Positions 4,743 through 51,117 are shown, counted from the first letter of the stretch. The stretch: 56,331 bases of DNA from a virus (IMGVR_UViG_3300038426_000018:1-56331), one strand, 5' to 3'. Notes: generated from the letters alone by a model not told the origin. Numbers and translations are program-made.

Positions 4743-5492
4743 ATGAAGCAATTCGGCATCGGTTTGGTGGTCGGAGTTCCTACCAGCGCAGGAAACCTCG
4801 CCACGCCTTCGTTTCCCCAACGGTTCGGCGTGATCAAGGAAGCCCAGGTGGAATTTTCCGGCAAGCTTGAAAAACTTTGGGGCCAGAACAAACTGCCGGA
4901 CGACATCGCGGCGTCCGACATGGAATTCAAAGGCAAGGCGGCCTTCGCGGAAATAGAGTCCGACGTCTACAACTCTTTGTTCTTCGGGGACGTCATTTCG
5001 ACCGGGTCGAAGAAGATGGTTTCGGACGAGGCCCCCGCAGCGGTCGCGGGCAACAACTTCACGGTCGCGAACGGCGGCAACAACTTCTATCAAAACTTCG
5101 GGCTGCGCTACGCGTCGACGGGCGTCACCCTCGAACAGGTCGGAGCGGGGAACGAGGCCACCGGCAAGTACAGCGTCAGCGCGACGGGCAAATACACGCT
5201 CGGAGGGAACGACGCGGGCAACAACGTGTTGTTCCTGGTGTCCTACGCCTACACGTCGACGGCCGGGAAAACCCTGTTGGTTACCAACCACCTGCAAGGG
5301 TACGGCCCGGTGTTCGAACTCTGGCTGTCGATGCCTTACCAGGGTGACAACGGCGTCCACCTGTTCCAATGCAAGTCGTCGAAAATGAGCCTGCCCCTCG
5401 ACAGGGCGAAGCACGTTTTCTCGGACTTCGAGTTCGAGTCGTTCCCGAACGCGGCCGGAAGCATCATGGAGTTTTTCCAAACCACCGCGTAG
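4743..5492 (+). CDS. Major tail (tube) protein
   Basis: AAAGGAG RBS; 249 aa beta-rich; position between terminator and chaperones/tape measure. Confidence 0.75.
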   Translation: MKQFGIGLVVGVPTSAGNLATPSFPQRFGVIKEAQVEFSGKLEKLWGQNKLPDDIAASDMEFKGKAAFAEIESDVYNSLFFGDVISTGSKKMVSDEAPAAVAGNNFTVANGGNNFYQNFGLRYASTGVTLEQVGAGNEATGKYSVSATGKYTLGGNDAGNNVLFLVSYAYTSTAGKTLLVTNHLQGYGPVFELWLSMPYQGDNGVHLFQCKSSKMSLPLDRAKHVFSDFEFESFPNAAGSIMEFFQTTA

Positions 5493-5500
5493 GAGGTCCG

Positions 5501-6736
5501 ATGGCGTTCACACCCAAGAAAACGTTGTTCACGCTGGCGGTCGACGATTACCCGAAGGAGATCACGGCGCTGACCTTCCCGATGCTGCAGGGATACGCGG
5601 AGAAGATCGGCGCCGACTTCCACGTCATCACCGAACGCCGTTTCCCCGATTGGCCGGTGGTCTGCGAGAAATGGCAGATCCACCGCTTGATGCAGGAACT
5701 CGGGAGCATGTGGGGCGTCTTCTTCGACGCCGACGCGCTGGTGCACCCCGAGACTCCGGATTTCACGGGCCTGCTGCCGTTGACCACCGTCGCGACGTGG
5801 AAACGGGACAGCGCGGGCCTGCGTTACAAACTCGATCGCCATTTCATCCGGGACGGCCGCTCGATCGGGACCTGCGGATGGTGTTCCATCGCCAGCTACA
5901 TGTGCCTCGACCTGTGGAAGCCGCCCGACGACCTGACGTTCGAGCAGGCGCTCGACCAGGTTTACCCCACGGTCGGGGAAGCCTCGAAAGGAATGGAGCG
6001 CAGCCACCTGTTGGACGACTATATTCTTTCGCGGAACATCGCCGAACGGCATTACGATTTCATCACCCTCGAAAACCTCCTCGGCAAACTCAGCCTGTTG
6101 AACATGAGTTTTGCCGTTCACGGTTACCTGATGAGCGTCGAGGACAAAGTGGACCTCCTGAAGACGACCCTTCGGACCTGGCGTTGCGGCCCGCCGTTGC
6201 CCGAGCCGGAAACGGTCTACAAGTCGCCCGGGATCGAAGGCTGGATCACGGACGAAGAGTTGCAGTGGTTGTTCGAACAGGCCCGGAAGCGCCGAAGCGT
6301 TTTGGAGGTCGGCTCTTGGTGCGGCCGGTCGACCCACGCCCTGCTGTCCGGATGTCCGGGGATCGTCATCGCGGTCGACACCTGGAAAGGTTCACCGACG
6401 GAACGGGCGGGACCCCACCGGAGGGCAGCCGAGGACCCGGAGTCGGTCTATTCCGATTTTATGAAGAACGTCGGGGCCATGCCGAACCTGCAGATCCTCC
6501 GCATGGATTCGATCGAGGCTTCCCGGAAGTTCGGGAACAAGTGCCTCGACATGGTGTTCCTCGACGGCAGCCACGAGTACGAGGATTTCAGTCGGGACCT
6601 GGCGGCCTGGATTCCGAAAACCCGTTTCATTTGCGGGCACGATCGGAACCAGGAAGGCGTTCCTTTGGGCCTGAAGGAAGCCGGGATTCAAATCTTGGAA
6701 GGGCCAGGGTCGATCTGGATAGGCGACCTGGTATAA
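5501..6736 (+). CDS. Glycosyltransferase-like (GT-A, DAD) domain fused to class I SAM methyltransferase (Methyltransf_24-like)
   Basis: AGGAGG RBS; YAEKIGADF..GVFFDADALV in N half; VLEVGSWCGRST, AVDTWKGS, DMVFLDGSHEYE, ICGHD in C half. Confidence 0.8.
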   Translation: MAFTPKKTLFTLAVDDYPKEITALTFPMLQGYAEKIGADFHVITERRFPDWPVVCEKWQIHRLMQELGSMWGVFFDADALVHPETPDFTGLLPLTTVATWKRDSAGLRYKLDRHFIRDGRSIGTCGWCSIASYMCLDLWKPPDDLTFEQALDQVYPTVGEASKGMERSHLLDDYILSRNIAERHYDFITLENLLGKLSLLNMSFAVHGYLMSVEDKVDLLKTTLRTWRCGPPLPEPETVYKSPGIEGWITDEELQWLFEQARKRRSVLEVGSWCGRSTHALLSGCPGIVIAVDTWKGSPTERAGPHRRAAEDPESVYSDFMKNVGAMPNLQILRMDSIEASRKFGNKCLDMVFLDGSHEYEDFSRDLAAWIPKTRFICGHDRNQEGVPLGLKEAGIQILEGPGSIWIGDLV

Positions 6737-17302: not shown

Positions 17303-19039
17303 ATGTCGAGTTGGGCCGAAAGACAACCAGCGGGCGCGAACAACAAACCCTGGTTCGGCGGCGCGATGAACAACGCCGGCGACTATCTTTTTGTCGGGGC
17401 CTCTTCGGGTCGGCTCTACACGTCCACGAACGGTGGAAGCAGTTGGACGGAGCGCCAGCCGAAAGGCGCTGCTGACGGATCGTGGTTTTGTTGCGCCATG
17501 AGCAGCGACGGCATGACGTTGATCGCGGGCGACAACGCCGCCCGCATGTGGATCTCTTTCGACAACGGCGCGACCTGGTCGGAGATCCAACCGGCCGGGA
17601 ACGTGAACAAAAACTGGATGACGGTCTGTTGCGATTTCACGGGCCAAGTCATCTATTGCGGCGTCAACTCCTCGCAAAACACCATCTATAAATCCCTCGA
17701 CGGTGGAACCAACTGGTCGACTATCACGTTGAACGCGAGCACGTTCACCTGCCAGCAGATTTCGTGCGACGAGACGGGGCAGAAAGTAGTGGTCGCCGCG
17801 ACCGGGACGAGCGCCGGTGGGATTTACGTTTCGCTCGACGGCGGCGCGACTTGGTCGAGGAACACGGCCACCGCTGGAACGAGCGTGCAAATGGCGGCCG
17901 TAGCCAGCAACGGATCGCTTTACCTGATAGCGAACGCGACGCGGATGTACATGTCCACGGACGACGGCGGGAGCTGGACGGAAACTCAACCTGCGGGCAA
18001 CGTGAACAAATCCTGGCACACCAGCCCGCGCGGGATCTCTGCGGACGGGCAGACGGCCCTGGTGGGCGTTTGGAGTTCCACCACGACGGGACGGCTTTAT
18101 TCGACGACGAATCAATGCGGGAGTTGGACCGAGGAACAACCTGCAGGCGCGGTCGACGCGGCTTGGCGCGGCTGCATGGTCGTCAGTTTGGACAGCAGTT
18201 ATTTCATGGCGGGCGTTTTCAACGGGCGTCTTTATTCCACCACCCCGACGCCGACGATTCCTTCGGGCACGAATCGGAATTGGACGAGAGTCGCGATCAG
18301 CCCGGACGGCGCGAAGGTGATGGCCTGCGCCGGGATGTCCCGCGTCGGCTCGTCGACGAACGGCGGCTCCTCCTGGTCCGAAGTTCGACCCGCAGGGAAC
18401 GCGAACAAAAACTGGCGCACCGTTTCCGTCAGCGACGACGGCACCGTCATGATGGCCGGGATCGGGAACGGCCGTTTGTATAGTTCGGTGAACAGCGGGT
18501 CCTCCTGGAGCGAAGAACAGCCAGCAGGCGCGGTCGACAAATATTGGAACACGTCGACCTGCGGCTCGACGGGCCTCATGAAAACCGTGGCGGCCTACGG
18601 CGGCCGGTTCTACACGCAGGGAACGCTCGCGCCGGTCGGAAACATCTCCGGGTATCCTTATCCGAAAAGCGCTTCGCTGATGGGAAAGATCGTCACCGGC
18701 TCGATCTCCGGTTACCCGTACGTGAGATCCCCGATGGGAATGATTTGCACGGGATCCATTTCCGGATATCCTTATCCGAGGTCGCCGATCGAGACGGGGT
18801 TCACCGGCAACATTTCAGGCTATCCGTATCTGAGGAGTCCGATCGAAAAGGACCTCGTCGGGTCCATCAGCGGTTACCCGTACCCGCATCACTCCCTGGA
18901 ATTCGACGCGGCGGGTTCGATCTCGGGCTTTCCTTTTCCGCTGAGCAGCTATTCGTTCACGCCCGGTGGGAAAAAGAATTTCACCGAGTTCTATTTGCTT
19001 TTGATGCAGGAACAGCGGCGAAAAATCCGCAATCCTTAA
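17303..19039 (+). CDS. Beta-propeller protein (7+3 blades) with C-terminal GxISGYPY repeats; probable receptor-binding/virion protein
   Basis: About 10 SxDxGxSW/QPAG repeats, then six ~18-aa repeats. Confidence 0.8.
   Translation: MSSWAERQPAGANNKPWFGGAMNNAGDYLFVGASSGRLYTSTNGGSSWTERQPKGAADGSWFCCAMSSDGMTLIAGDNAARMWISFDNGATWSEIQPAGNVNKNWMTVCCDFTGQVIYCGVNSSQNTIYKSLDGGTNWSTITLNASTFTCQQISCDETGQKVVVAATGTSAGGIYVSLDGGATWSRNTATAGTSVQMAAVASNGSLYLIANATRMYMSTDDGGSWTETQPAGNVNKSWHTSPRGISADGQTALVGVWSSTTTGRLYSTTNQCGSWTEEQPAGAVDAAWRGCMVVSLDSSYFMAGVFNGRLYSTTPTPTIPSGTNRNWTRVAISPDGAKVMACAGMSRVGSSTNGGSSWSEVRPAGNANKNWRTVSVSDDGTVMMAGIGNGRLYSSVNSGSSWSEEQPAGAVDKYWNTSTCGSTGLMKTVAAYGGRFYTQGTLAPVGNISGYPYPKSASLMGKIVTGSISGYPYVRSPMGMICTGSISGYPYPRSPIETGFTGNISGYPYLRSPIEKDLVGSISGYPYPHHSLEFDAAGSISGFPFPLSSYSFTPGGKKNFTEFYLLLMQEQRRKIRNP
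18637..18945 (+). repeat. Six tandem coding repeats G(N/S)ISG(Y/F)P(Y/F)
   Basis: Visible directly in the translation. Confidence 0.85.
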
Positions 19040-31769: not shown

Positions 31770-32054
31770 ATGCAAATGTTTTGGTTTTGGATTCTCGTTC
31801 TCGGCGGCGGGAGAATCGAGTTCGAGAAGAAGAAGAAAAAGCGGAAGGCGGTCGACCTGTATGTAAAGATCGACCGCGCCCGCTCCGAACAGATCCCGTT
31901 GCACAAAGCGGCCCTGTGCGTCAACTGCGACAACATAGTCGAGACCGATCGCTATTGTCCCGCCTGCGGTAGTTCATCCCTGTTGAACCTGGCCCGGATT
32001 TTGAACCGGGAGAAAAAGAGAGCGAACCTATGGCGACTTACGTCGACCCGATAA
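31770..32054 (+). CDS. Zinc-ribbon protein
   Basis: CVNCD..CPACGS; GGAGG RBS. Confidence 0.65.
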   Translation: MQMFWFWILVLGGGRIEFEKKKKKRKAVDLYVKIDRARSEQIPLHKAALCVNCDNIVETDRYCPACGSSSLLNLARILNREKKRANLWRLTSTR

Positions 32055-32308
32055 GGCGCACGTTGAAGAACAAGATCTGGCCCTTCGAGACGGCCTGTCA
32101 CATGATCGCGGATTCGCTGCAGGAGTTGCACGCCATGGCCGACGCGATCGGGTTGAAGCGATCGTGGTTCCAAGCCAATGCCGCCCTTCCCCACTACGAT
32201 TTGACGGCGAACAAACGGTACCAGGCCGTCAGGCACGGCGCGGTCGAGATCTCGTTCCAGGAAGTCGCAGACAAAGCGAAAGCGAAAAGGAGGTCCGCGA
32301 ATGAATAG
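32030..32308 (+). CDS. DUF4031-like protein
   Basis: YVD..CHMIADSLQELHAMA..IGLKRSWFQ..PHYDLT. Confidence 0.85.
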   Translation: MATYVDPIRRTLKNKIWPFETACHMIADSLQELHAMADAIGLKRSWFQANAALPHYDLTANKRYQAVRHGAVEISFQEVADKAKAKRRSANE

Positions 32309-33218
32309 TCAAAAGCCTGACGGCATATCGTACGTCGATTACACCTGGAATCCCGTGGTCGGCTGCACGGAGATTTCGAACAAGTGCAAGAATTGTTGGG
32401 CGCGGTCGCAGGCCCACGTTCACTATCGTCAGGAGTTCACCCACTTCGGCGTCGAAGGGGTCCGCTGGAACCAGCGGGCGAAGTTTTTCCCGGAGAGATT
32501 GGACGAACCGAAGAAGGTCAAGAAGCCTTCGCGGATCGCCGTCGCTTTCATGGGCGATCTGTACCACGAGAACGTCGCGCCGATGGCGCAGCGGCTCGTC
32601 TTCTCCTCGATCGACAACACGCCCTGGCACACCTTCTTGATCTGCACGGCGCGGCCGCAGCGGATGTGCGAAGAGATCACGGCCAACAGCATGTTCGCGG
32701 ATTTCAAGGCGCGACCTTATCCGAACGTGTGGCTCATGACGTCCGTCGAGGACCAGGCGAACGCGAACGAGCGAATCCCCTGGCTTCTCAGGACCCCGGC
32801 GCACGTGCGCGGAGTCAGCGCCGAACCCCTGCTCGGGTCGATCGACTTCCACAAGATTAAGATGGGCTGCGGGTGGGATTCGATCTCCTGCGCTTGTTCT
32901 CCCAGGGCCTGCCAACACGCGACCTTGGATTGGATCGTCGCGGGCGGGGAATCAGGCCCCAAGGCGAGGCCCACTCCTCCTGCCTGCTTTCGCGAGATCC
33001 GCGATCAATGCAGCGACGTGGGGATACCCTTCCACTTCAAACAGCACGGCGAATGGATCGGATACGACGACATCGGGGATCTGGCCTATGATCTGCCGGC
33101 GATGAAACCGAAAGTCTATGGTTGGCCGGACGGCCGCTGTTCTTATCGAATCGGCGCCAGCCTGAGCGGGCGCATGTTGGACGGCCGGGAATGGCTCGGC
33201 CTTCCGAGGGTGGCGTGA
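32301..33218 (+). CDS. DUF5131 / phage Gp37-Gp68 family radical-SAM-like protein
   Basis: TWNPVVGC.EIS..CKNCWA, MGDLYHE, SAEPLLG, WIVAGGESG, PFHFKQ.G. Confidence 0.9.
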   Translation: MNSQKPDGISYVDYTWNPVVGCTEISNKCKNCWARSQAHVHYRQEFTHFGVEGVRWNQRAKFFPERLDEPKKVKKPSRIAVAFMGDLYHENVAPMAQRLVFSSIDNTPWHTFLICTARPQRMCEEITANSMFADFKARPYPNVWLMTSVEDQANANERIPWLLRTPAHVRGVSAEPLLGSIDFHKIKMGCGWDSISCACSPRACQHATLDWIVAGGESGPKARPTPPACFREIRDQCSDVGIPFHFKQHGEWIGYDDIGDLAYDLPAMKPKVYGWPDGRCSYRIGASLSGRMLDGREWLGLPRVA

Positions 33219-33863: not shown

Positions 33864-34147
33864 GGATCAACAGCAGCGTCACCAGCTACGCCCTCGTCTA
33901 TCGGGCGACCCTCAACCCGCAGACCCGCCAGGTCGAGAAATCAGATACTCCGATAGGAATGGTGGGGCCTCATCACCGCGTGGCCGACGCCGAAGCAGCG
34001 GCCAAGCGCGAATTCAAATTCGGGCCTACCGAAGCGCCGTACCTGGCGTCGGTCCCGATAGCGACTTATCGCAAGATCGAAAAGATCATGAAAAAGCAAA
34101 ACCTGGATTTCGCGGCGGCCTGGTCCGTCCACCGGAGCCGAGGATGA
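33860..34147 (+). CDS. Hypothetical protein
   Basis: ATGA coupling at both ends. Confidence 0.6.
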   Translation: MRINSSVTSYALVYRATLNPQTRQVEKSDTPIGMVGPHHRVADAEAAAKREFKFGPTEAPYLASVPIATYRKIEKIMKKQNLDFAAAWSVHRSRG

Positions 34148-34482
34148 TCTGTCCTTTCTGCGGACGCGAAGCCGTATGGTGCGAGAACAAGGCCATCTAC
34201 GGCAGGAACTTCGGGAAGTCGTACATGTGCTATTTCTGCAAGCCGTGCAACGCGTACGTGGGCTGTCACCAAAACACGCGCGTTCCTCTGGGCACGATGG
34301 CGAACGCGGAACTGCGGGCGTGGAGAATGAAGGCCCACGCCCACGTCGACCCGATCTGGCGATCAGGCCAGATGACCAGAAGGCAGCTTTACAGAAGGCT
34401 CAAAGAGATATTCGGACGGCAGATCCACATCGCCGAAAGCGACGTTGAGCAATGCCGGCAGATCTTAGAAATTAAGTTTTGA
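34144..34482 (+). CDS. Zinc-finger protein (DUF3268-like)
   Basis: CPFCG, C.PCNAYVGCH..PLGTMANAELR..R.KAH..DPIW. Confidence 0.8.
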   Translation: MICPFCGREAVWCENKAIYGRNFGKSYMCYFCKPCNAYVGCHQNTRVPLGTMANAELRAWRMKAHAHVDPIWRSGQMTRRQLYRRLKEIFGRQIHIAESDVEQCRQILEIKF

Positions 34483-39831: not shown

Positions 39832-40034
39832 AAGCTTGGCGAAAAGTCATCCGCGCGGAACTGTACGCGAACAAATGTTGCCCGATAAGTGCGCGGGGAA
39901 CCTTCAAATTTACGCTGGAATGCGGTCATATCGCCTTCGCAAAAGCCAGCGGCGGCATTCCGGCGAAGAAGGTTTGCCGCGACTGCCAAACCATCGAAAA
40001 CGTCTGCAAACGCCTGCATCCCTGCGGGTCTTGA
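39828..40034 (+). CDS. Small Zn-ribbon protein
   Basis: LECGH..CRDC; GTGA coupling. Confidence 0.55.
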   Translation: MKAWRKVIRAELYANKCCPISARGTFKFTLECGHIAFAKASGGIPAKKVCRDCQTIENVCKRLHPCGS

Positions 40035-40065
40035 CCCGTTTCCCGTGAAACGATGGAGGATAGAA

Positions 40066-40365
40066 GTGAGAAAACATTTTTGCAGTAAGTGCCACTTAGA
40101 GGTTCCTGTTTCAGGTGGATACTGCCGGAAATGCGCCAATGAATATATGAGAAAAGTGCGGAAACAAGGGAAATTCAGGCATGATTCGTCGGAATATAAA
40201 AAAGTTCGCGTGGGCAAAAAGGTAATCGGAAAACATCGCGTAGTTGCAGGCGTCACGAATCCGAAACTCTATGTCCACCATAAAGATCATGACCCCGGAA
40301 ACAATGATTTTGAAAATTTGGAAGTCTTAAAGCCGACGGAACATTACGCCGTCCACCATTCCTGA
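40066..40365 (+). CDS. Small HNH endonuclease
   Basis: GGAGG RBS with GTG; CSKC..CRKC; HRVV..VHHKDHDPGNNDFENLEVL...H. Confidence 0.8.
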   Translation: MRKHFCSKCHLEVPVSGGYCRKCANEYMRKVRKQGKFRHDSSEYKKVRVGKKVIGKHRVVAGVTNPKLYVHHKDHDPGNNDFENLEVLKPTEHYAVHHS

Positions 40366-40537: not shown

Positions 40538-41320
40538 GTGACGGAAGGGAACGGGAAGGAACCCGACTCCAAGACGGAACACGAGGGCGCGTTGCGCCCG
40601 GTGAAACTCGTCGACCTGGCGGCCCTGATACCCTTCGAACGCAACGCCCGAATCCACTCTGAAGAACAGATCCAACAAATCATCGCGTCGATAAAAGAAT
40701 TCGGTTGGACGAATCCCATCCTGACGGACGGCGACAAAGGGATCTTGGCAGGCCACGGAAGATTCGAGGCGGCGAAGAGGTTGGGCCTCGGGCAAGTTCC
40801 CTGCATCGACCTCTCGGGCCTGACGCCCGCGCAGAAACGGGCGTACGTGATAGCCGACAACAAGCTGGCCCTGAACGCCGGGTGGGACGAAACCCTTTTG
40901 AAAATGGAACTGATGTCGCTGGAGGACGCCGGTTTCGATTTCAGCGTGACGGGATTCGAGCAGTTCGAAATCAACAACCTCCTCGACACGGCCGCGCAGC
41001 AGCCCGAATCCTTCTGGGGCGGGATGCCGCAGTTCACCTCGAAAGACGGCGCTTGGCGGTCGATCATAATCCACTTTCGAAATCAGGAAGCCCTGGACGA
41101 CTTCGCCCGTTTGATCGGACAAACCGTCAGCCCGAAAGCCCGTTTCCTGTGGCACCCGCCCGAGGAAAAGATCCTCATCGCGAAAAACAAGCGCTACGTC
41201 TCCGACGCTGAAAACCCCGAGGAGACGACAGAGCAGGCGGCCGAAGGTCAGGCCGCGCCCGAAGCAAACCAAGCTGCACGACAGGCAGGCATGCCGGACC
41301 TGGCAAACCTCAATGAATAG
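40538..41320 (+). CDS. ParB/Srx N-terminal domain protein with a C-terminal domain typical of TAGT-associated genes
   Basis: NARIHSEEQI..SIKEFGWTNPIL..ILAGHGR.EAA..IADNKL; WGGMPQF..SIIIHF..DFARLIGQ. Confidence 0.85.
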   Translation: MTEGNGKEPDSKTEHEGALRPVKLVDLAALIPFERNARIHSEEQIQQIIASIKEFGWTNPILTDGDKGILAGHGRFEAAKRLGLGQVPCIDLSGLTPAQKRAYVIADNKLALNAGWDETLLKMELMSLEDAGFDFSVTGFEQFEINNLLDTAAQQPESFWGGMPQFTSKDGAWRSIIIHFRNQEALDDFARLIGQTVSPKARFLWHPPEEKILIAKNKRYVSDAENPEETTEQAAEGQAAPEANQAARQAGMPDLANLNE

Positions 41321-42662
41321 CTTTCTGCCGGCGAACGCCCGAAAAGAGAAGATCGTCAAGCCGCTCGGCGCCACGAGTCCTTGGGTGTGGTCGCTCGAAC
41401 CCACGCACGGCTGCAACCTCCGATGCGGGCACTGCAACTGCAGGCTGGATCCGCTTCCCAAGACGTACGATTTCATGGGCGAGGAAACCTGGCGAAAGGC
41501 TTGGGCCATCATCGCGCGGACGGCCCCGACCTGCCGGGTGGATCTCTGCGTCGGCGGCGAACCGACGTTGAACGAAAGCCTGCCGGACTTCCTGAAGATC
41601 GCCCGGGAGATCTCGCCGCGAACTCAGATCCAGATCACGACGAACGGCACCATGATCGCCTCGGGGCACGTCACGTATAAGCAGCTCCTCGACGCTGGCG
41701 CGAACATCGTCTACACCGACATGTATTCCCCGGCCGAACTCTTTCACCGCTTGGCCGACGAGTCCGGGTATCCTTCGTACGAATACTACAACCCGCCTCC
41801 GCAGGCCCCGAGCCCGTGGACTTATTGGGGTCCGCAGTTGAAGATGATCGTGCTGCAGGAGCAACCGGAGAACTGGCCCGAAACCCGTTTTCGCGCCGGA
41901 CTCCTCGGCACCTGGTACAACGCGGCCGTGATCGACCCGGCGAAGATCCTCGTCCTCGACAAGGTGAAGTATCAGGACGCGTACGAAACATACGACGAGC
42001 TCGGGTACGCGAAAAGCAAAGGCCCCGGAGCCGCCAGGAACTTCGCGTGGGATCACGCGATCGCCGCAGGCCACGATTGGCATTGGGTGATGGACGACAA
42101 CATCCGGCGATTCTACCGATTCGATCAGGAACAGCAGATCCCCGTGGGCGACGGGACGATCTTCCGGGCCATGGAGGATTTCGCGCTGCGGTTCGAGAAC
42201 GTCGCGATGGCGGGCCCTAATTATTTCATGTTCGTGCCGCGCAAAGATCACGTGTGCGTCTTCTCCCTGAACACGCGCATCTATTCCTGCAACCTCATCG
42301 GGAACGAACTGCCCTACCGCTGGCGCGGGCGCTACAACGAGGACACGGATCTGTCTTTGCGGATGCTGAAAGCGGGCTGGTGCACCGTGCAGTTTAATTG
42401 CTTCCTCCAACTCAAGGCCCCGACGCAGACCGTGAAGGGCGGGTGCAACAAAGATTTCTACCAGGTCGAAGGCACGTTGCCGAAATCGCAGATGCTAGTT
42501 CGAATGCACCCGGACGTGACGAAACTCAAGTGGAAGTTCAACCGCTGGCACCACGAGGTCGACTATCGCGTGTTCCGGCACAACCGGCTGCGCTTGAAAC
42601 ACGGCGTCGAGATCCCGAGCGAAGCCGACGACTACGGGATGAGATTGGCGGTGGTGTCGTGA
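41313..42662 (+). CDS. Radical SAM domain fused to a TAGT/GREB1-like glycosyltransferase domain
   Basis: CNLRCGHC, GGEPT, ITTNG; then GPGAARNFAWDH, WVMDDN, NTRIYSC, RYNEDTDLSLR, KGG. Confidence 0.8.
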   Translation: MNSFLPANARKEKIVKPLGATSPWVWSLEPTHGCNLRCGHCNCRLDPLPKTYDFMGEETWRKAWAIIARTAPTCRVDLCVGGEPTLNESLPDFLKIAREISPRTQIQITTNGTMIASGHVTYKQLLDAGANIVYTDMYSPAELFHRLADESGYPSYEYYNPPPQAPSPWTYWGPQLKMIVLQEQPENWPETRFRAGLLGTWYNAAVIDPAKILVLDKVKYQDAYETYDELGYAKSKGPGAARNFAWDHAIAAGHDWHWVMDDNIRRFYRFDQEQQIPVGDGTIFRAMEDFALRFENVAMAGPNYFMFVPRKDHVCVFSLNTRIYSCNLIGNELPYRWRGRYNEDTDLSLRMLKAGWCTVQFNCFLQLKAPTQTVKGGCNKDFYQVEGTLPKSQMLVRMHPDVTKLKWKFNRWHHEVDYRVFRHNRLRLKHGVEIPSEADDYGMRLAVVS

Positions 42663-43354
42663 GCGGCCGAGTCAGCAGCAAGCAACAACTCGAAAGTGAA
42701 GTGCGGCGATCGCAGATCCTCGAACTTCGGTTGAAGGAAAAACTCAACCAGTTCCAAATAGCCGAGCGCATGGGGATCACCCAAAGCGCCGTCAGCAAAA
42801 ACCTGGCGAAGGCGAAAGAGGAATTCCGGCAGTTCCGTTGGGACCTGCTGGACGCGGACCTGGCGTTCGAGGTCGACAAGTGCAACGACATCGAGGTGGA
42901 AGCCCGCAGGGCGCTGCGGGCCGCGTGGCGATCGTGGAAGAAATCCATCGGCGTCGTGAAAGTCACCAGGAAGATCGCGAAGGTGGTCCGGACCCAGGCC
43001 GCCCCGAACAAAGACGGCACGCACCAGGAGCCGCAGGAATCGATGAGGCCCGAGAAGATGGAAACCCGCGAGGAGATCAAGGTCGGGAACGCGGCTTTGA
43101 TGTCCGCGATCCTGAAGGCGATCGAACGCATCGACAACGTCGCGGATCGGCGCTGTCACTTGCTCGGCTTCATCGGCGGCGCCAGATCTGCGGGAGATCA
43201 GCCCCGGAAGAACGACAGGGCGGCCATCCCTGCGGACATGACCAATTCGGACCTCATGAAAGAAGTGTTCGAATTTTTCAACGAATTCGGCTCGCCTAAA
43301 GCACCAGGAGGCGGGAACGGCGACAAGGGCAATGGATCACATGGGCCTAATTAA
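42659..43354 (+). CDS. terS: Terminase small subunit (N-terminal HTH)
   Basis: RR.QILELR..NQFQIAERMGITQSAVS; RRCHLLG; overlaps terL. Confidence 0.7.
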   Translation: MSGRVSSKQQLESEVRRSQILELRLKEKLNQFQIAERMGITQSAVSKNLAKAKEEFRQFRWDLLDADLAFEVDKCNDIEVEARRALRAAWRSWKKSIGVVKVTRKIAKVVRTQAAPNKDGTHQEPQESMRPEKMETREEIKVGNAALMSAILKAIERIDNVADRRCHLLGFIGGARSAGDQPRKNDRAAIPADMTNSDLMKEVFEFFNEFGSPKAPGGGNGDKGNGSHGPN

Positions 43355-45131
43355 CGCGAATTTGCCGATCGACCAGGTCGACCCGGAACGGTTGAAGCAC
43401 GTCGTCGAGTGCGCGGCCGAGTTTCGCCGGCGCATGCGTTGGCAGAAGGATCACATCGCGTGGTGCCGCGAGCGCCTTCACATGCCGGACATCCCCGGAA
43501 TCGGGCTTCCGATCTGGGAGAAGCAGGACGAAGTTTGGCGCAGCGTGATCGAGCACCGCAAAACCCACTGCAGGTCGGGGCATAAAACCGGCAAGACCCT
43601 CGACGCGGCCATCATCGCCCTGTGGTTCCTCGATTGCTGGCGGCCTTCCCGCGTGGTTTCGACCTCCGCGTCCTGGCCCGACGTGAAAATGAAACTGTGG
43701 GGCCACATCCGCGATCGCTACCGCTCGGGCGGTTCCTGGTTCGGAGTGCCGGTGTCCACCACCGACCTGAAGATCACCGATCGTCATTACGCGACGGGCC
43801 TATCGTGCGACCGGCCGGAAGCCTTCGCGGGACACAACGAGCAGTTCGTGCTGGTGATCATCGACGAGGCCTCGGCTGTCCGTCAGGAACTTTGGGACGC
43901 CGCAGAAGCCGAAGCCACGAAGATCCTGGAAATCGGAAACCCGCTGTTGGCCGAAGGCCCGTTCTATAAGCACGCGTCCTCCTCCGAGTACAACCACATC
44001 CACATTTCCTGTTGGGATCATCCGAACGTGAAGACGGGCGTCGAGATCATTCCAGGAGGGCCGACGCTGGCGTGGTGTCAGGACCGCTTGGAGAATTGGG
44101 GCGAGACGGACCCGCTCTACAGGACTCGAGTCCTGGGAGAGTTCCCGGAGGAGTCGGCCGACAGTTTGTTCCCGATGAGTTTGATCCAAGCCTGCTTCGA
44201 TCGGTGGAAGGAAGTCAAGGACCTGGAACGGGAGCAAGACGCCGAACACGTGCGGGGCCTCGACGTGGCGCGGGCCGGTGGCGACCGCACGGAAGGTTAC
44301 GACAAGGACCGGGTGAAGTTGGGCGACCTCTCGATCGCGCGGTACAAGAAAGTCTTAGAACTGCGGAAAACCGACCACTACAGGACCCGAATGCGGATGG
44401 CCGGGATCTTCGCCGGCGACCCTTGCGACATCACGAACGTGGACGCGGGCGGGGAAGGCTCGGGCCTGGCAGACGAGCTCGCGAACACCACCGTCGAGGG
44501 ATTCGACAAGCCGATGCGGGTCCGCAGGGTCCACTTCGGAGCCAACGCCACCACGTCGGATTATTTCAACGTGCGGGCCGAAATGTACTGGCAACTTTCG
44601 CAGGCCATGAAAGCTGGCGCCGCACTCGAACCGGACGAGCAGCTCCGCGAAGAGTTGATCGTGGTCGGAGGCATGGCGACGTACAAGGAGAAGCAATTCG
44701 AAGGCGTCAAAAAGCTGGTGCGTTTCCTTCGGCCGAAGGAGGAGGTCAAAGAACTATTGGGCCGGTCGTGCGACAAGTCGGACGGCTTGGCCCTGGCGAA
44801 CTACAAACCGGGCGGCCTGGGCCTGCTGGATTTTTACGCGCAGGAAGCCAAGCGGGTTCGTCAACAAGGAGCGGAGCAACAACCGCTGGATCAATCGTTG
44901 GCCGCTGCGCAGATGACCGCCGCGGACGACGATCGGTTCGCGGTCAAGGACAAAAGCGGGGTCGCTCAGAAGTCGAGGCCCGCAGGGAAGGTTTGTCCGG
45001 ACTGCGGCCGAAGCGTTGCGCAGTACGAAGAAACCTTCAAGTGCTTTTCCTGCGGCCGGACTGGTCGCAACAACGAACTCAAATCAGGAGGAAAGAACGA
45101 TGGGAGCACTATCGGAATCCAACCCCATTAG
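43332..45131 (+). CDS. terL: Terminase large subunit with C-terminal Zn-ribbon extension
   Basis: SGHKTGKT, IIDEAS, IGNP, VLGEFP, GLDVARAGGD, DKSDGL. Confidence 0.92.
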   Translation: MDHMGLINANLPIDQVDPERLKHVVECAAEFRRRMRWQKDHIAWCRERLHMPDIPGIGLPIWEKQDEVWRSVIEHRKTHCRSGHKTGKTLDAAIIALWFLDCWRPSRVVSTSASWPDVKMKLWGHIRDRYRSGGSWFGVPVSTTDLKITDRHYATGLSCDRPEAFAGHNEQFVLVIIDEASAVRQELWDAAEAEATKILEIGNPLLAEGPFYKHASSSEYNHIHISCWDHPNVKTGVEIIPGGPTLAWCQDRLENWGETDPLYRTRVLGEFPEESADSLFPMSLIQACFDRWKEVKDLEREQDAEHVRGLDVARAGGDRTEGYDKDRVKLGDLSIARYKKVLELRKTDHYRTRMRMAGIFAGDPCDITNVDAGGEGSGLADELANTTVEGFDKPMRVRRVHFGANATTSDYFNVRAEMYWQLSQAMKAGAALEPDEQLREELIVVGGMATYKEKQFEGVKKLVRFLRPKEEVKELLGRSCDKSDGLALANYKPGGLGLLDFYAQEAKRVRQQGAEQQPLDQSLAAAQMTAADDDRFAVKDKSGVAQKSRPAGKVCPDCGRSVAQYEETFKCFSCGRTGRNNELKSGGKNDGSTIGIQPH

Positions 45132-47776: not shown

Positions 47777-48117
47777 TGCGGCTGCGGGACCTCGAAGGAA
47801 GTTTGATCAAGCGCGAACTCAGGGACGGCGGCGACTATCGCGTGCCCGTCGAGGCGATCCGCGACGCCGACGGCGTAAGGTTCCTGTGCCCGAAATGTTT
47901 CTCGAAGAACGGCGGGCCCGTGGGCACGCACCTGGTGATCTGCTGGTTCGTCGGGAGAGTTCCGATCGACCTTGATCCCAAACCCGGCCGGTGGCATCCG
48001 TTCGGGCATTCGATCGAGGACTTGACGTTCATAGGCCCTGGCAACGTCAGCGTGGCGATTCAGGGCGCGTGCTGTTGGCACGGGTTCGTTCGAGACGGCG
48101 AAGCAACCTTGACGTGA
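47773..48117 (+). CDS. Hypothetical Zn-binding protein (DUF6527-like)
   Basis: FLCPKC..H..W..DLTF..SV..CCWHGFVRDG. Confidence 0.65.
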   Translation: MMRLRDLEGSLIKRELRDGGDYRVPVEAIRDADGVRFLCPKCFSKNGGPVGTHLVICWFVGRVPIDLDPKPGRWHPFGHSIEDLTFIGPGNVSVAIQGACCWHGFVRDGEATLT

Positions 48118-48125
48118 GGCCAATC

Positions 48126-50702
48126 ATGGGAAGATTTCGAGACGCTTTCAAAGCCTTGACCTCGCTCTCGGGCGGGGAACTGATCACGACGGGGCCTTTC
48201 GCCGGAAAGGACGCGCGGACCCTGGCGCTCCCGGAGATCCGCGTTCCGAAGCCGCCGACGCAGTTGCCCGACGTGACCTCCGGTTGGTTTACCCCGCTGC
48301 AGCCGATCGGCCCGTTCGCTCCTCCGGGAACGGTCCCGAGACAATTCGCCTACCTTCCGGGTACCAACATCCTGTGGCAGCCGAAGTCGGGCGAGCCGGG
48401 GCCTTCCGGAGTCACGTTCGAAACCCTGCGGCTGCTCGCGGACTCGTGGGACATCCTGCGGCTGTTCATCGAAACGCGCAAAGATCAGATGTTTCGAATC
48501 CCGTGGACCTTCCGTTGCAAACGGCAGCCGGGGGAGAGCGAAGAGCAGTTCAAGAAGCGCAACGCGAAGGACAAGGGACTGACCGCGCTCCATAAATTTT
48601 TCGAGAGGCCGGACGGCGAACACGATTTCGACATCTGGATGAAAATGTGGATGGAAGACGAGATCGTGATCGACGCCGTTTCGATCTACGCCCAACGCGA
48701 TCGCAAGGGCAAGATCGCTTCTTTCCTTCCTTTCGACGGGGCCACGTTTAACCGCAGGATCACGGACCAGGGCATCACGCCGCCGAAAGGGCAGACCGCC
48801 TACCAGCAGGTTTTGTACGGGATCATTTCCGGCAACTTCACCACGGACGATTTGATTTATTTCATGCGCAACCCGAGGACCTGCAGGCTGTACGGTTTCT
48901 CCCGCGTCGAGCAAATCCTCCTGACGATCAACCTGGGCCTGCGCCGCTTGGAGTTCCAGTTGCAGGAATACCTGTCGGGCAACACGCCCGAGGCCATCGT
49001 GTTTCTGCCCGTGGGCGGCGACTCCGGGATCACGATCGACCAGGTCAAAGACGCGCAAGACAACTTCAACGCGATGATGGCGGGCAACCTCGCCACTCGC
49101 CGGCAGATCCGGTTCCTGCCTTCCTACGGGACCAAGGGCGAACGCCCGCCGATCGTGTTTCCCAAAGAGGCCCTGATAAAAGATCCTATCGACGAATGGC
49201 TCGTGAAGATCGTCGCGTTCAACTTCGGCATGTCCACGCAGTATTTCGATCGGCAGATGAACCGCGCCAGCGGCGAAACCGCCAAGGAGACGGCCGAAGA
49301 GGAAGGCTTGTTGCCGGACGTGAAGATCGCCACGAAGATCACGAACCGTTGCGTCGAACTCCTGGGCCTGGCCGATCAGTATGAGTGCGCCTACGACATG
49401 CCGGGCGTCATGGATCCAGACAAGCAAGCCGACGCCGACAAGAAGCGCGTCGACTCCGGACTCAACACCCGGAACGAAATCCGCGAAGCCCGAGGAGAAG
49501 ATCCGGCCCCGGAGGAGAACGCCGACAGGCTCACCATCACCACCGCGACCGGCGTCATTCCTCTCGACGAAAAGCAGGACAACATCGCGGCCGGTTTGAA
49601 TCCGGACGGATCTCCGAAGGCGGCCCCGGAGCCGGTCGACGATAAACAACCTCCTGCAGGAGGAGACGGGAAGCAGCAGGCCGAGGGAGGCGAACCCGGC
49701 GGGAAGAAACCCAAGGGCAAGAAGAAACCCAAGGGCGGGGCCAAGATCATGAAAGCCGTTCCGAAACGCAGGTCCTTTATTTCGGTCGGGCAACTCACCC
49801 CGGCCACGGAGAAGGCGATCGAGGCCGCGTCGAAAACCCTGGCGGCCGCGTTCGGGAAGATGGCCGAAAAAGCCTCGGCCAAAGTCAAGGCGATCGAGAA
49901 GGCCAGCAAGCCCGACGACGTGACGGACGAAATCATGAAAGCCTTGGACGAGGAATTCCGCGCCCTTCCTCCTGCGGTGCAGGCCCAACTGGAAGCGGCC
50001 GCTTTGTCCGGGATCTCGCAGGTCGCGGCGCAGTTGTCCGTAGACGACGGCGAACTCCTCGGCAAGACGAACGAGATCGCGCGGGCCTGGGCCAAGAAGC
50101 GGGCGGCCGAAATGGTCGGCATGAAATGGGTAGACGACGAGCTCGTCGACAACCCGAACGCGAAGTGGGCCATCGACGACACCACCAGGTCGGACATCCG
50201 GAAGATCCTGACCGAAGGGTTCGCGTCGGAAGAAACCTCGATCGCGGACATCGGGAAGGCCATCGAAGAGGCCGCGTCGTTCTCCGCGTACCGATCCGAC
50301 ATGATCGCTCGAACCGAGTGCGCCCGCGCCCAGATCTTCGGCGGGCTGGAAATGTGGGAGAAGTCCGGCCTCGTGAAATCCTACGAGTGGTTGAACTCCG
50401 AGGACGAGGACGTGTGCGAGATCTGCGAAGAGTTGGGCGACGGCGGGCCTTACTTGCTCGGAACCGGCCCGCTGCCGATCGACGATTCTCACCCGAATTG
50501 CCGTTGCGTCCTTTCGGCCGTGGAGATCGCGGAGACGGAAGAGATGGCGGCGGCCGCCAGGTCGAAGCAGCAGGCTTGGCTGTTCATCAGGGCGGCGCAG
50601 GAGGCGGTCAAACATAATTCGAACGGAGGCAAACATGCAGGGCAACGACAAAGTGATCGCGGCGCTTCAGGCGGCCATCAACACGGAAGCGACGCTCGCT
50701 GA
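48126..50702 (+). CDS. Portal protein fused to MuF-like head morphogenesis domain
   Basis: IETRK.Q, RNPRT..YGFS.VE, NEIR..RG.DP; C-terminal MIARTE, W...D.DVCEIC, HPNCRC. Confidence 0.9.
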   Translation: MGRFRDAFKALTSLSGGELITTGPFAGKDARTLALPEIRVPKPPTQLPDVTSGWFTPLQPIGPFAPPGTVPRQFAYLPGTNILWQPKSGEPGPSGVTFETLRLLADSWDILRLFIETRKDQMFRIPWTFRCKRQPGESEEQFKKRNAKDKGLTALHKFFERPDGEHDFDIWMKMWMEDEIVIDAVSIYAQRDRKGKIASFLPFDGATFNRRITDQGITPPKGQTAYQQVLYGIISGNFTTDDLIYFMRNPRTCRLYGFSRVEQILLTINLGLRRLEFQLQEYLSGNTPEAIVFLPVGGDSGITIDQVKDAQDNFNAMMAGNLATRRQIRFLPSYGTKGERPPIVFPKEALIKDPIDEWLVKIVAFNFGMSTQYFDRQMNRASGETAKETAEEEGLLPDVKIATKITNRCVELLGLADQYECAYDMPGVMDPDKQADADKKRVDSGLNTRNEIREARGEDPAPEENADRLTITTATGVIPLDEKQDNIAAGLNPDGSPKAAPEPVDDKQPPAGGDGKQQAEGGEPGGKKPKGKKKPKGGAKIMKAVPKRRSFISVGQLTPATEKAIEAASKTLAAAFGKMAEKASAKVKAIEKASKPDDVTDEIMKALDEEFRALPPAVQAQLEAAALSGISQVAAQLSVDDGELLGKTNEIARAWAKKRAAEMVGMKWVDDELVDNPNAKWAIDDTTRSDIRKILTEGFASEETSIADIGKAIEEAASFSAYRSDMIARTECARAQIFGGLEMWEKSGLVKSYEWLNSEDEDVCEICEELGDGGPYLLGTGPLPIDDSHPNCRCVLSAVEIAETEEMAAAARSKQQAWLFIRAAQEAVKHNSNGGKHAGQRQSDRGASGGHQHGSDAR

Positions 50703-51117
50703 AGTTTACAAACTCAACGGTCGGGCGCTCTCGAAAAAACTCGGCCTGAAGACCGGCAAGGAATTAAAGGGACTCGGTTGCCAATGCCGGGGATACATGA
50801 AAAAGATCGCGAAGAGGCTCGAACTGTTCGAGGTCTTCGCCGAGGTCGAAGCGGCCACGGCGACCGTGGGGAAGACGACCACGGAAACGATCGACGAGTT
50901 GATCGCGATGGAACTCGCGGCCGTGAAGCAATACACGCAGGACGTGATCGCGTGTTGGAACGCGAAAGACATGGACTGCTTCCACTTCTTTCAGCACATG
51001 TGCAAATGGCACACGGTCGGAGAGAACGGCAACGTCGGCCACTTGAATTACCTGCAGCACGAGCGCAGGCAGTTGACCGAATTCGGCGAGAAGGATTACG
51101 AAGAGGTCCACGCTTAA
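50635..51117 (+). CDS. Bacterioferritin-like protein with degenerate ferroxidase centre
   Basis: MQGNDKVIAAL..E18..Y25..R61...E66..E93..GH.NYL aligns by eye with Bfr; GGAGG RBS. Confidence 0.75.
   Translation: MQGNDKVIAALQAAINTEATLAEVYKLNGRALSKKLGLKTGKELKGLGCQCRGYMKKIAKRLELFEVFAEVEAATATVGKTTTETIDELIAMELAAVKQYTQDVIACWNAKDMDCFHFFQHMCKWHTVGENGNVGHLNYLQHERRQLTEFGEKDYEEVHA

Follow-up and report, generated by a model that had tools for sequence, protein, structure and literature searches.

The 56,331-base IMG/VR virus record IMGVR_UViG_3300038426_000018 (hereafter the window, meaning the whole stretch that was analysed; linear and about 65% complete by CheckV) carries, among the genes leading into its large terminase gene terL, a single open reading frame (ORF) of 449 amino acids (aa) in which a radical S-adenosylmethionine (radical SAM, or rSAM) domain runs in frame into a TET/JBP-associated glycosyltransferase (TAGT) domain of the GT-A fold. 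This fusion-like ORF is very probably the scar of a deletion that joined two adjacent DNA-modification genes, in a module that is itself decaying. An earlier account of the same DNA, made from its letters alone (the sequence-only reading), had presented the ORF as an evolved fusion of rSAM to glycosyltransferase, a headline that we abandon because conserved integral parts are gone from both halves. The caveat of that account, that the ORF might be a deletion chimera of two neighbouring genes, is the part that prevails, since both halves are cut at the junction and relatives carry separate genes. The features on which the argument turns are the following:

40538..41320, plus strand: ParB-like gene, 260 aa (phrog_620, E 6.3e-53), apparently intact
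41003..41206, plus strand: tail domain of the ParB-like protein, about residues 156-223 (alignment A4), proposed as a TAGT-docking adaptor
41313..42662, plus strand: chimeric ORF, 449 aa, with rSAM 1-203 in frame with TAGT 44-end
41313..41921, plus strand: rSAM remnant (alignment A1), with CX3CX2C at 41412-41435
41919..41924, plus strand: probable deletion junction, ...TWYN / AAVIDP..., placed by family alignments of both halves
41922..42659, plus strand: TAGT (GT-A) remnant, Pfam profile positions 51-205 (alignment A3)
40748..40757, plus strand: left 10-bp direct repeat GCAGGCCACG, bordering the ParB::TAGT allele (P0003 type)
42066..42075, plus strand: right 10-bp direct repeat GCAGGCCACG, bordering the same allele (P0003 type)
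42659..43354, plus strand: TerS-like helix-turn-helix (HTH) protein, 231 aa if GTG 42659 is the start, named from HTH matches and its position before terL, with start and TerS role putative
43332..45131, plus strand: terminase large subunit gene, terL (phrog_2, E 2.3e-30)

The chimeric ORF and the parts missing from its two halves

Both domains of the 449-aa protein are recognised by Pfam: Radical_SAM covers residues 29-148 (E 5.1e-12, profile 2-120 of 166), and TAGT (PF20691) covers residues 212-377 (E 1.8e-30, profile 51-205 of 205). The PHROGs match is phrog_842 (E 8.2e-35). In an alignment of the window protein with 16 full-length rSAM family members (A1), the family likeness lasts until ...LLGTWYN, that is, until residue 203 (codon 41919-41921), and in an alignment with 23 TAGT sequences (A3) the likeness to that family begins right after the junction, at AAVIDPAKILVL. 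The switch from rSAM to glycosyltransferase, which had been read at about 41921 of the ORF 41313-42662, is therewith placed exactly at 41921/41922.

The rSAM half belongs to the radical SAM superfamily (PF04055, 46.7 bits against a cut-off of 29.5) and keeps its cysteine motif, C34-x3-C38-x2-C41. Its homology stops at residue 203, and the family runs about 120-135 residues further in A1, through a stretch in which C238, C256, C257, C305 and C308 are invariant (numbering of L068, an intact relative). Intact relatives match the SPASM domain (PF13186; E 2.2e-7 and 3.2e-6), and the homology of the window protein ends before this auxiliary Fe-S domain, which leaves it outside the SPASM/twitch type. 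Structure models were made of the rSAM (L068) and the TAGT (P0004) of intact relatives. Strand 6 of the L068 rSAM model (pLDDT 84, pTM 0.86) spans residues 190-195, and the window homology ends at the equivalent of L068 N215; because it extends past strand 6, the (beta/alpha)6 core is whole, and what has been lost is the SPASM domain together with the C-terminus.

The TAGT half scores 106.9 bits against the PF20691 cut-off of 27.5 and retains WVMDDN, RYNEDTDL and the C-terminal YGM segment. Its profile match is confined to positions 51-205 of 205, so that the N-terminal half of the GT-A domain is incomplete, and the homology begins at residue 44 of P0004, a typical TAGT of 293 aa that is 72% identical. 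The 43 lost residues hold the near-invariant P6, Y8, S11, K12, R14, T20, L24 and E36 (A3, P0004 numbering), and in the P0004 model (pLDDT 88.7) they correspond to strand E7-10, helix H19-26, strand E32-35 and helix H37-44. A sequence search of the PDB with intact P0004 gave no match at E <= 1; by structure, solved GT-A enzymes do match the model (Foldseek E down to 2.9e-5), in alignments that begin at its residue 1-5 (Z 12.4-14.1 over 193-227 residues), and the lost segment is therefore part of the core fold. The N-terminal half of GT-A enzymes binds the nucleotide of the sugar donor. The sequence-only reading had held both halves to be truncated, and so they are, the rSAM lacking its C-terminus with SPASM and the TAGT its N-terminus; the short rSAM barrel that it also described does not stand, given that the core is complete. 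Most likely, the product of the chimera is catalytically dead in both halves, as we infer from the missing parts.

Relatives carry the two genes apart

A profile search with the rSAM family (alignment A2) found 30 viral loci and two close loci on genome contigs; it replaced a single-protein locus search with the rSAM of L064, which had matched only itself. The link between the rSAM family and TAGT is real: at 24 of 29 full-length viral rSAM loci a TAGT lies within 5 kb. Fused or separate genes in relatives had been named as a comparison to make, and its outcome is that separate, full-length rSAM and TAGT genes are present in 26 of the 27 loci holding both (the 27 loci were not de-replicated and several pairs are near-duplicates), the single-ORF exception being the window's own type. 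Viewed from the TAGT side, the 80 nearest viral loci match only query residues from about 204 to 449, again with the exception of the window's own type, and rSAM is absent at 76 of these 80. The gene order ParB(tail)-rSAM-TAGT is found in L168, L169, L176, L186, L187 and L193.

Two candidates for further fusions, L064 and L068, seemingly matched residues 3-448 and were rejected, for each holds three separate genes: a small one for the tail domain, a complete TAGT and a complete rSAM of 337-338 aa, the last two in the order TAGT-rSAM. No two-domain protein other than the window's own cluster, P0001, was present among the best 120 matches of each close-relative protein search, and a search of longer proteins had a single match, P0240. 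This is a full-length fusion of 658 aa on 9 contigs, in which rSAM and SPASM are followed by some 50 residues of linker and a TAGT from profile position 4. The TAGT half of P0240 comes from a more distant clade.

The rSAM is evidently lost often. In L141 a fusion protein of 388 aa (L141:3617-4783) has the ParB-tail domain ahead of a full-length TAGT, and downstream of it, at L141:4758-5773, all that is left of the rSAM is the SPASM portion, which follows an unrelated 180-aa gene without a Pfam match, evidently a further and independent decay of the rSAM. Two side observations concern the same families. P0005 and P0013 (560-588 aa) hold two tandem TAGT domains per protein, and several clusters of such a length are among the top matches. 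The close rSAM-TAGT loci on genome contigs, L192 and L193, belong to metagenome-assembled genomes of Desulfosporosinus (palsa peat) and of Caulobacteraceae; the Caulobacteraceae contig is close in size to a complete viral record that has terminal repeats (G025), and both may therefore be phage contigs that were binned with their hosts.

Sister deletion alleles in the peat population

The stretch is present in 24 peat or wetland runs, of which 18 contain at least half of its words, and Logan contigs were compared for four of the 24 listed runs (X6, X15, X16 and X18). Two further protein types show that the window allele does not stand by itself. P0002 (293 aa) is identical to the window protein over residues 1-203, continues with 52 family-typical rSAM residues (HLDW...CNQPF...CCQDN...), and after this rSAM(1-255) resumes with the final 38 TAGT residues of the window protein. 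Because each of the two keeps sequence that is absent from the other, the window allele and P0002 are independent deletions, at least two in number, from a longer ancestor. In P0003 (268 aa), ParB residues 1-73 lead straight into the TAGT part, which is entered at about residue 244.

The P0003 allele was also found as DNA, namely as a 3,642-base contig of run X15 in which 40747 is followed directly by 42066, 1,318 bases being absent and 10 letters shared at the repeat GCAGGCCACG; the joint is in frame because the ParB and chimera frames are offset by one base. The depth of this contig is 16.9, that of the flanking 51,763-base contig 17.6, and that of small contigs within the deleted span 2.5-6.2, these figures being contig-level and suggestive only. 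A second X15 joint, 41540 > CAA > 42450, would be in frame and is possibly a fourth allele, rSAM(1-76)::TAGT(from 380); its shorter side measures just 30 letters, and it is tentative. Pieces of 33 letters at 42121-42153, loose at both ends, are probably the TAGT motif of other organisms, and bins without contig cover in X15 and X18 prove nothing. A metagenome scan with the chimera returned L082 and 79 TAGT loci and no P0002 or P0003 contigs, in a collection from which near-identical records were possibly omitted.

The genes of the block overlap one another. The letters ATGAATAG at 41313-41320 are common to the ParB stop and the chimera start, the chimera stop TGA at 42660-42662 overlaps GTG 42659 of the TerS frame (as GTGA), this GTG being the putative terS start codon, and terS and terL overlap at 43332-43354. 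The ORF listing and the sequence confirm all the overlaps of the three genes that had been described as leading into terL. The TerS candidate has matches to Sigma70_r4 (E 2.5e-5) and HTH families, lies directly before terL and has no TerS family match in Pfam or PHROGs. The packaging linkage that the sequence-only reading proposed for the block is not general: a homologue of the window TerL was found by tblastn within 3 kb downstream of the TAGT in 1 of 64 loci with room for it, a weak negative, as TerL diverges fast.

The ParB-like protein and its tail domain

The ParB-like protein has a ParB/Srx-type N-terminal domain by its matches to phrog_620 and phrog_15396 (E 7.3e-48), and scores 23.6 bits with Pfam ParB_N, under the cut-off of 26.3. 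Homologues lie directly upstream of the TAGT in 65 of 80 viral loci. The tail that had been picked out by eye as WxGMPxF..SIIIHF proves to be a conserved domain some 70 residues long. Its motif is W160-x-x-M163-P164-x-F166 ... IIIHF ... W205-x-P207, and all 24 of the 24 aligned sequences (A4) have the W, M, P, F, W and P unchanged. The domain is found on ParB, alone (L064 and L068), or N-terminally on the TAGT (L141), and in some form it stands beside the TAGT in 67 of 80 viral loci.

A model of the complex between the tail and the TAGT of L068 scored 0.87, against 0.00 for the best of three controls; the mark for this score is reached by 116 of 157 solved complexes and by 2 of 215 mismatched pairs, counts which are rough because custom alignments were used. 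The model runs agree in at least 83% of contacts, with partner pLDDT of at least 68. On the tail, the modelled contacts are in the W-x-x-M-P segment and in C-terminal residues 89-99; on the TAGT they are in L068 residues 94-115, 135-145 and 261-280, the conserved YGM segment among them. Docking of the ParB tail on the TAGT is thus modelled at high confidence, and would give ParB a concrete role in DNA-modification loci.

Alternative explanations and proposed history

Three other explanations of the ORF have to be set against a deletion scar. We think it very unlikely that it encodes a working bifunctional enzyme, whose rSAM half would activate a base or sugar without oxygen and pass it to the fused glycosyltransferase half. 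Such an enzyme would agree with the open frame, with the two Pfam domains above cut-off and with the retained CX3CX2C and DDN/EDTD motifs; the linkage of the two families, the occurrence of the fusion P0240 in the same order, and the peat or wetland habitat of all 24 runs, which suits oxygen-free chemistry, likewise speak in its favour. P0240, however, has the whole rSAM with SPASM, the linker and a TAGT from position 4, and the window protein has none of these. Its SPASM domain and the strand 1-helix 1-strand 2-helix 2 unit of GT-A are gone, eight near-invariant residues included, its architecture is limited to one 90% cluster, and the sister alleles delete even more of the module. Still further from probable, to our minds, is an assembly artefact, that is, a chimeric contig of two genes that are really separate. 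The Logan contigs do break near the junction (X6 at 41861 and 41892, X16 at 41912), the population is mixed there, and no contig of the four runs has at least 31 letters on each side of 41921, the nearest approaches being those from 41892 (X6) and from 41912 (X16). The independent support for the junction is therefore a second contig of 7,439 bases in IMG/VR and in the metagenome collection (L001/L082), with the same junction, and the 90% protein cluster P0001, which carries it in 6 sequences on 3 contigs. Against an artefact stand also a 15,583-base X6 contig, whose start lies some 30 letters to the left of the junction and which reads through it, and the absence at the junction of any long repeat able to mislead an assembler.

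That the remnant is kept for a non-catalytic role, as a translated spacer feeding ribosomes to the terS start or as a scaffold binding the ParB tail, is rather unlikely in our estimate. All deletion alleles seen are in frame and share the stop at 42660-42662 overlapping GTG 42659, and the modelled tail-contacting TAGT segments lie in the retained part, as this role would have it; the in-frame alleles are few, however, and partly biased by the route of their discovery, and the fourth depends on the joint with 30 letters on its shorter side. We suggest keeping in mind that several observations weigh against a deletion scar in a dying module, the lack of a bridging contig among them. The rSAM core and its CX3CX2C are complete and might still cleave SAM, and the loss of catalysis is itself deduced from missing parts. 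The ORF is gene-like, with a GC content at third codon positions (GC3) of 0.83 and no internal stops, which fits a recent deletion or a gene in use. The argument from frame-keeping is biased, two of the alleles coming from a protein search that sees only long ORFs, and the retained tail-contacting surfaces of the TAGT would allow some non-catalytic role. An intact, near-identical ancestor was not recovered, the nearest full-length rSAM and TAGT genes being only about 64-73% identical.

A deletion scar remains the explanation we prefer, and the following history would account for it. In an ancestral peat phage, ParB(tail), rSAM/SPASM and TAGT would have been three separate genes just upstream of terS and terL. 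A deletion of about 0.5-0.6 kb would then have removed the last third of the rSAM gene, the spacer behind it and 43 codons from the start of TAGT, the frame being kept by chance. The product left behind would lack the auxiliary Fe-S (SPASM) domain and, in the nucleotide-sugar-binding half of GT-A, strands 1 and 2 with helices 1 and 2. The phage population as a whole appears to be losing the module, near-identical genomes carrying other deletions, the P0003 type between the 10-bp direct repeats. Every deletion allele seen preserves the reading frame and terminates at the stop overlapping the putative terS start, and this frame-keeping may reflect selection for translation running into terS and terL. 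In-frame deletion alleles within one natural population would offer a small and testable case of how essential downstream genes shape the decay of phage genes. We advise against annotating or expressing the window ORF as a bifunctional enzyme; it serves as a warning against attractive fusions.

The intact module and its acceptor

The intact rSAM of the relatives has its best PDB match, by the L068 model, in BtrN (4m7t; E 2.6e-13, TM 0.79 by target length), followed by matches at about E 5e-6 that include DesII and SpeY. BtrN also came first in a sequence-profile search (E 2.7e-12), over the core only (profile positions 28-145). BtrN, DesII and SpeY oxidise or rearrange sugars and aminocyclitols. 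Here is thus a SPASM-type rSAM family which resembles sugar dehydrogenases and travels almost only with TAGT.

The window was said to lack any recognisable TET/JBP dioxygenase or hydroxymethylase, and we came to the same result: neither Tet_JBP (PF12851; E <= 1) nor Thymidylat_synt (PF00303) was found in six frames or among 53 ORFs compared with Pfam, in a record that is incomplete to the extent given above. Tet_JBP was present in 1 of the 30 rSAM-bearing records, a 305-kb phage in which it lies far from the rSAM and in which no TAGT lies within 5 kb of that rSAM, and in 0 of 50 TAGT-only viral records (G031-G080), nine of which are at least 90% complete; these 50 are part of the 76 viral loci without rSAM and are mostly longer records. 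Thymidylat_synt was found in 0 of 30 rSAM-bearing and 0 of 50 TAGT-only records, and its control was positive in 10 of 14 named genomes. This TAGT clade has no TET/JBP or thymidylate-synthase homologue alongside, and because neither partner is there, we assign no acceptor to it. The idea that the rSAM replaces TET/JBP is not supported in that form, given that it would predict TET/JBP in ParB-TAGT phages without rSAM, where it was seen in 0 of 50.

The sequence-only reading had supposed that the rSAM activates a base or a sugar for the glycosyltransferase. A partnership of the two is upheld by the linkage of their families and by P0240; its acceptor-making variant is weakened, and because rSAM is absent from 76 of the 80 nearest TAGT loci we favour a sugar-tailoring add-on over an obligatory step that makes the acceptor. 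In the intact relatives, the ParB-like protein would sit on phage DNA, its tail domain would dock the TAGT, which would add a sugar to a base, and the BtrN-like rSAM/SPASM protein, as an optional add-on, might oxidise or tailor the sugar or the nucleotide-sugar donor without oxygen. As a tentative possibility, and one on which we would not insist, the ancestral ParB(tail)/BtrN-like rSAM-SPASM/TAGT module might be an undescribed, oxygen-independent decoration of DNA with radical-tailored sugars, working without a TET/JBP or thymidylate-synthase-type enzyme, and the population might be losing it through recurrent microhomology deletions that are held in frame by coupling to terS. The intact module in relatives deserves bench work.

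Other genes of the window

Upstream of the module lies one further gene of the neighbourhood:

39889..40365, plus strand: HNH endonuclease gene (Pfam HNH_3, E 1.7e-6; phrog_59, E 1.9e-8)

Elsewhere, the early/replication region holds a DUF4031 gene (E 2.3e-21) followed by a DUF5131 gene of the Gp37/Gp68 family (E 3.6e-69) at 32030-33218, and a DUF3268 zinc-finger protein at 34144-34482. Among the tail and structural genes there is a 455-aa protein with Methyltransf_24 (5369-6736; E 5.4e-12), and after the large tail protein a BNR/sortilin-type repeat protein of 578 aa (17303-19039), possibly receptor- or glycan-binding. At its end, the portal/Mu-F fusion gene (47991-50702) shares bases with the reading frame of a ferritin-like domain protein (50635-51117; E 4e-6).

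Comparison with known systems

A literature search, in which subscription journals were thinly covered, found no paper on the rSAM-TAGT pair, and the word "radical" is absent from the available portions of PMC13326640, PMC13229309, PMC8256090 and bioRxiv 10.1101/2023.12.21.572611. The accessible text of PMC13229309 describes ParB as an activator or partner of the phage thymine dioxygenase (5mYOX, of the TET/JBP type), with glycosyltransferases as common neighbours. The module resembles these 5mYOX cassettes in having a ParB-like gene beside phage DNA-base-modifying enzymes (PMC13229309, in the same portion), and differs from them in that 5mYOX was not found in the window and was present in 1 of 30 rSAM records and 0 of 50 TAGT-only records, and in that the ParB tail is modelled to bind the TAGT and not a dioxygenase.

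According to the parts at hand of PMC8256090 and bioRxiv 10.1101/2023.12.21.572611, GT-A-like DNA glycosyltransferases occur near ParB, terminase and replication genes and add their sugar after replication, and the phage glycosyltransferases of the C5-MT/TET/GT type are tied to 5mYOX or to thymidylate-synthase homologues, which supply 5-hydroxymethylcytosine (5hmC) or 5-hydroxymethyluracil (5hmU). Unlike those clusters, the TAGT clade treated here is accompanied by neither. The T-even beta-glucosyl-HMC alpha-glucosyltransferase, which gives phrog_842 its label, is of the same sequence family as the window TAGT, from which it is set apart by the missing N-terminal 43 residues of the window copy and by the lack of a hydroxymethylcytosine pathway in the record.

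An rSAM enzyme has a precedent in phage DNA hypermodification: in the consulted part of PMC8989533, gp53 of Pseudomonas phage M6 is a spore photoproduct lyase-like rSAM protein of thymidine hypermodification, which isomerises a glycine appended to 5-hydroxymethyldeoxyuridine (5-hmdU). The likeness lies in the setting, an rSAM within a DNA-hypermodification cluster, gp53 acting after the first group has been installed (PMC8989533, as above), whereas the present family bears SPASM, is nearest to BtrN, DesII and SpeY, and is paired with a glycosyltransferase. With BtrN (4m7t), DesII and SpeY the intact relative shares the rSAM core and a C-terminal auxiliary-cluster domain, at an identity of about 21%, and it is precisely this auxiliary-cluster domain that the window copy no longer has.

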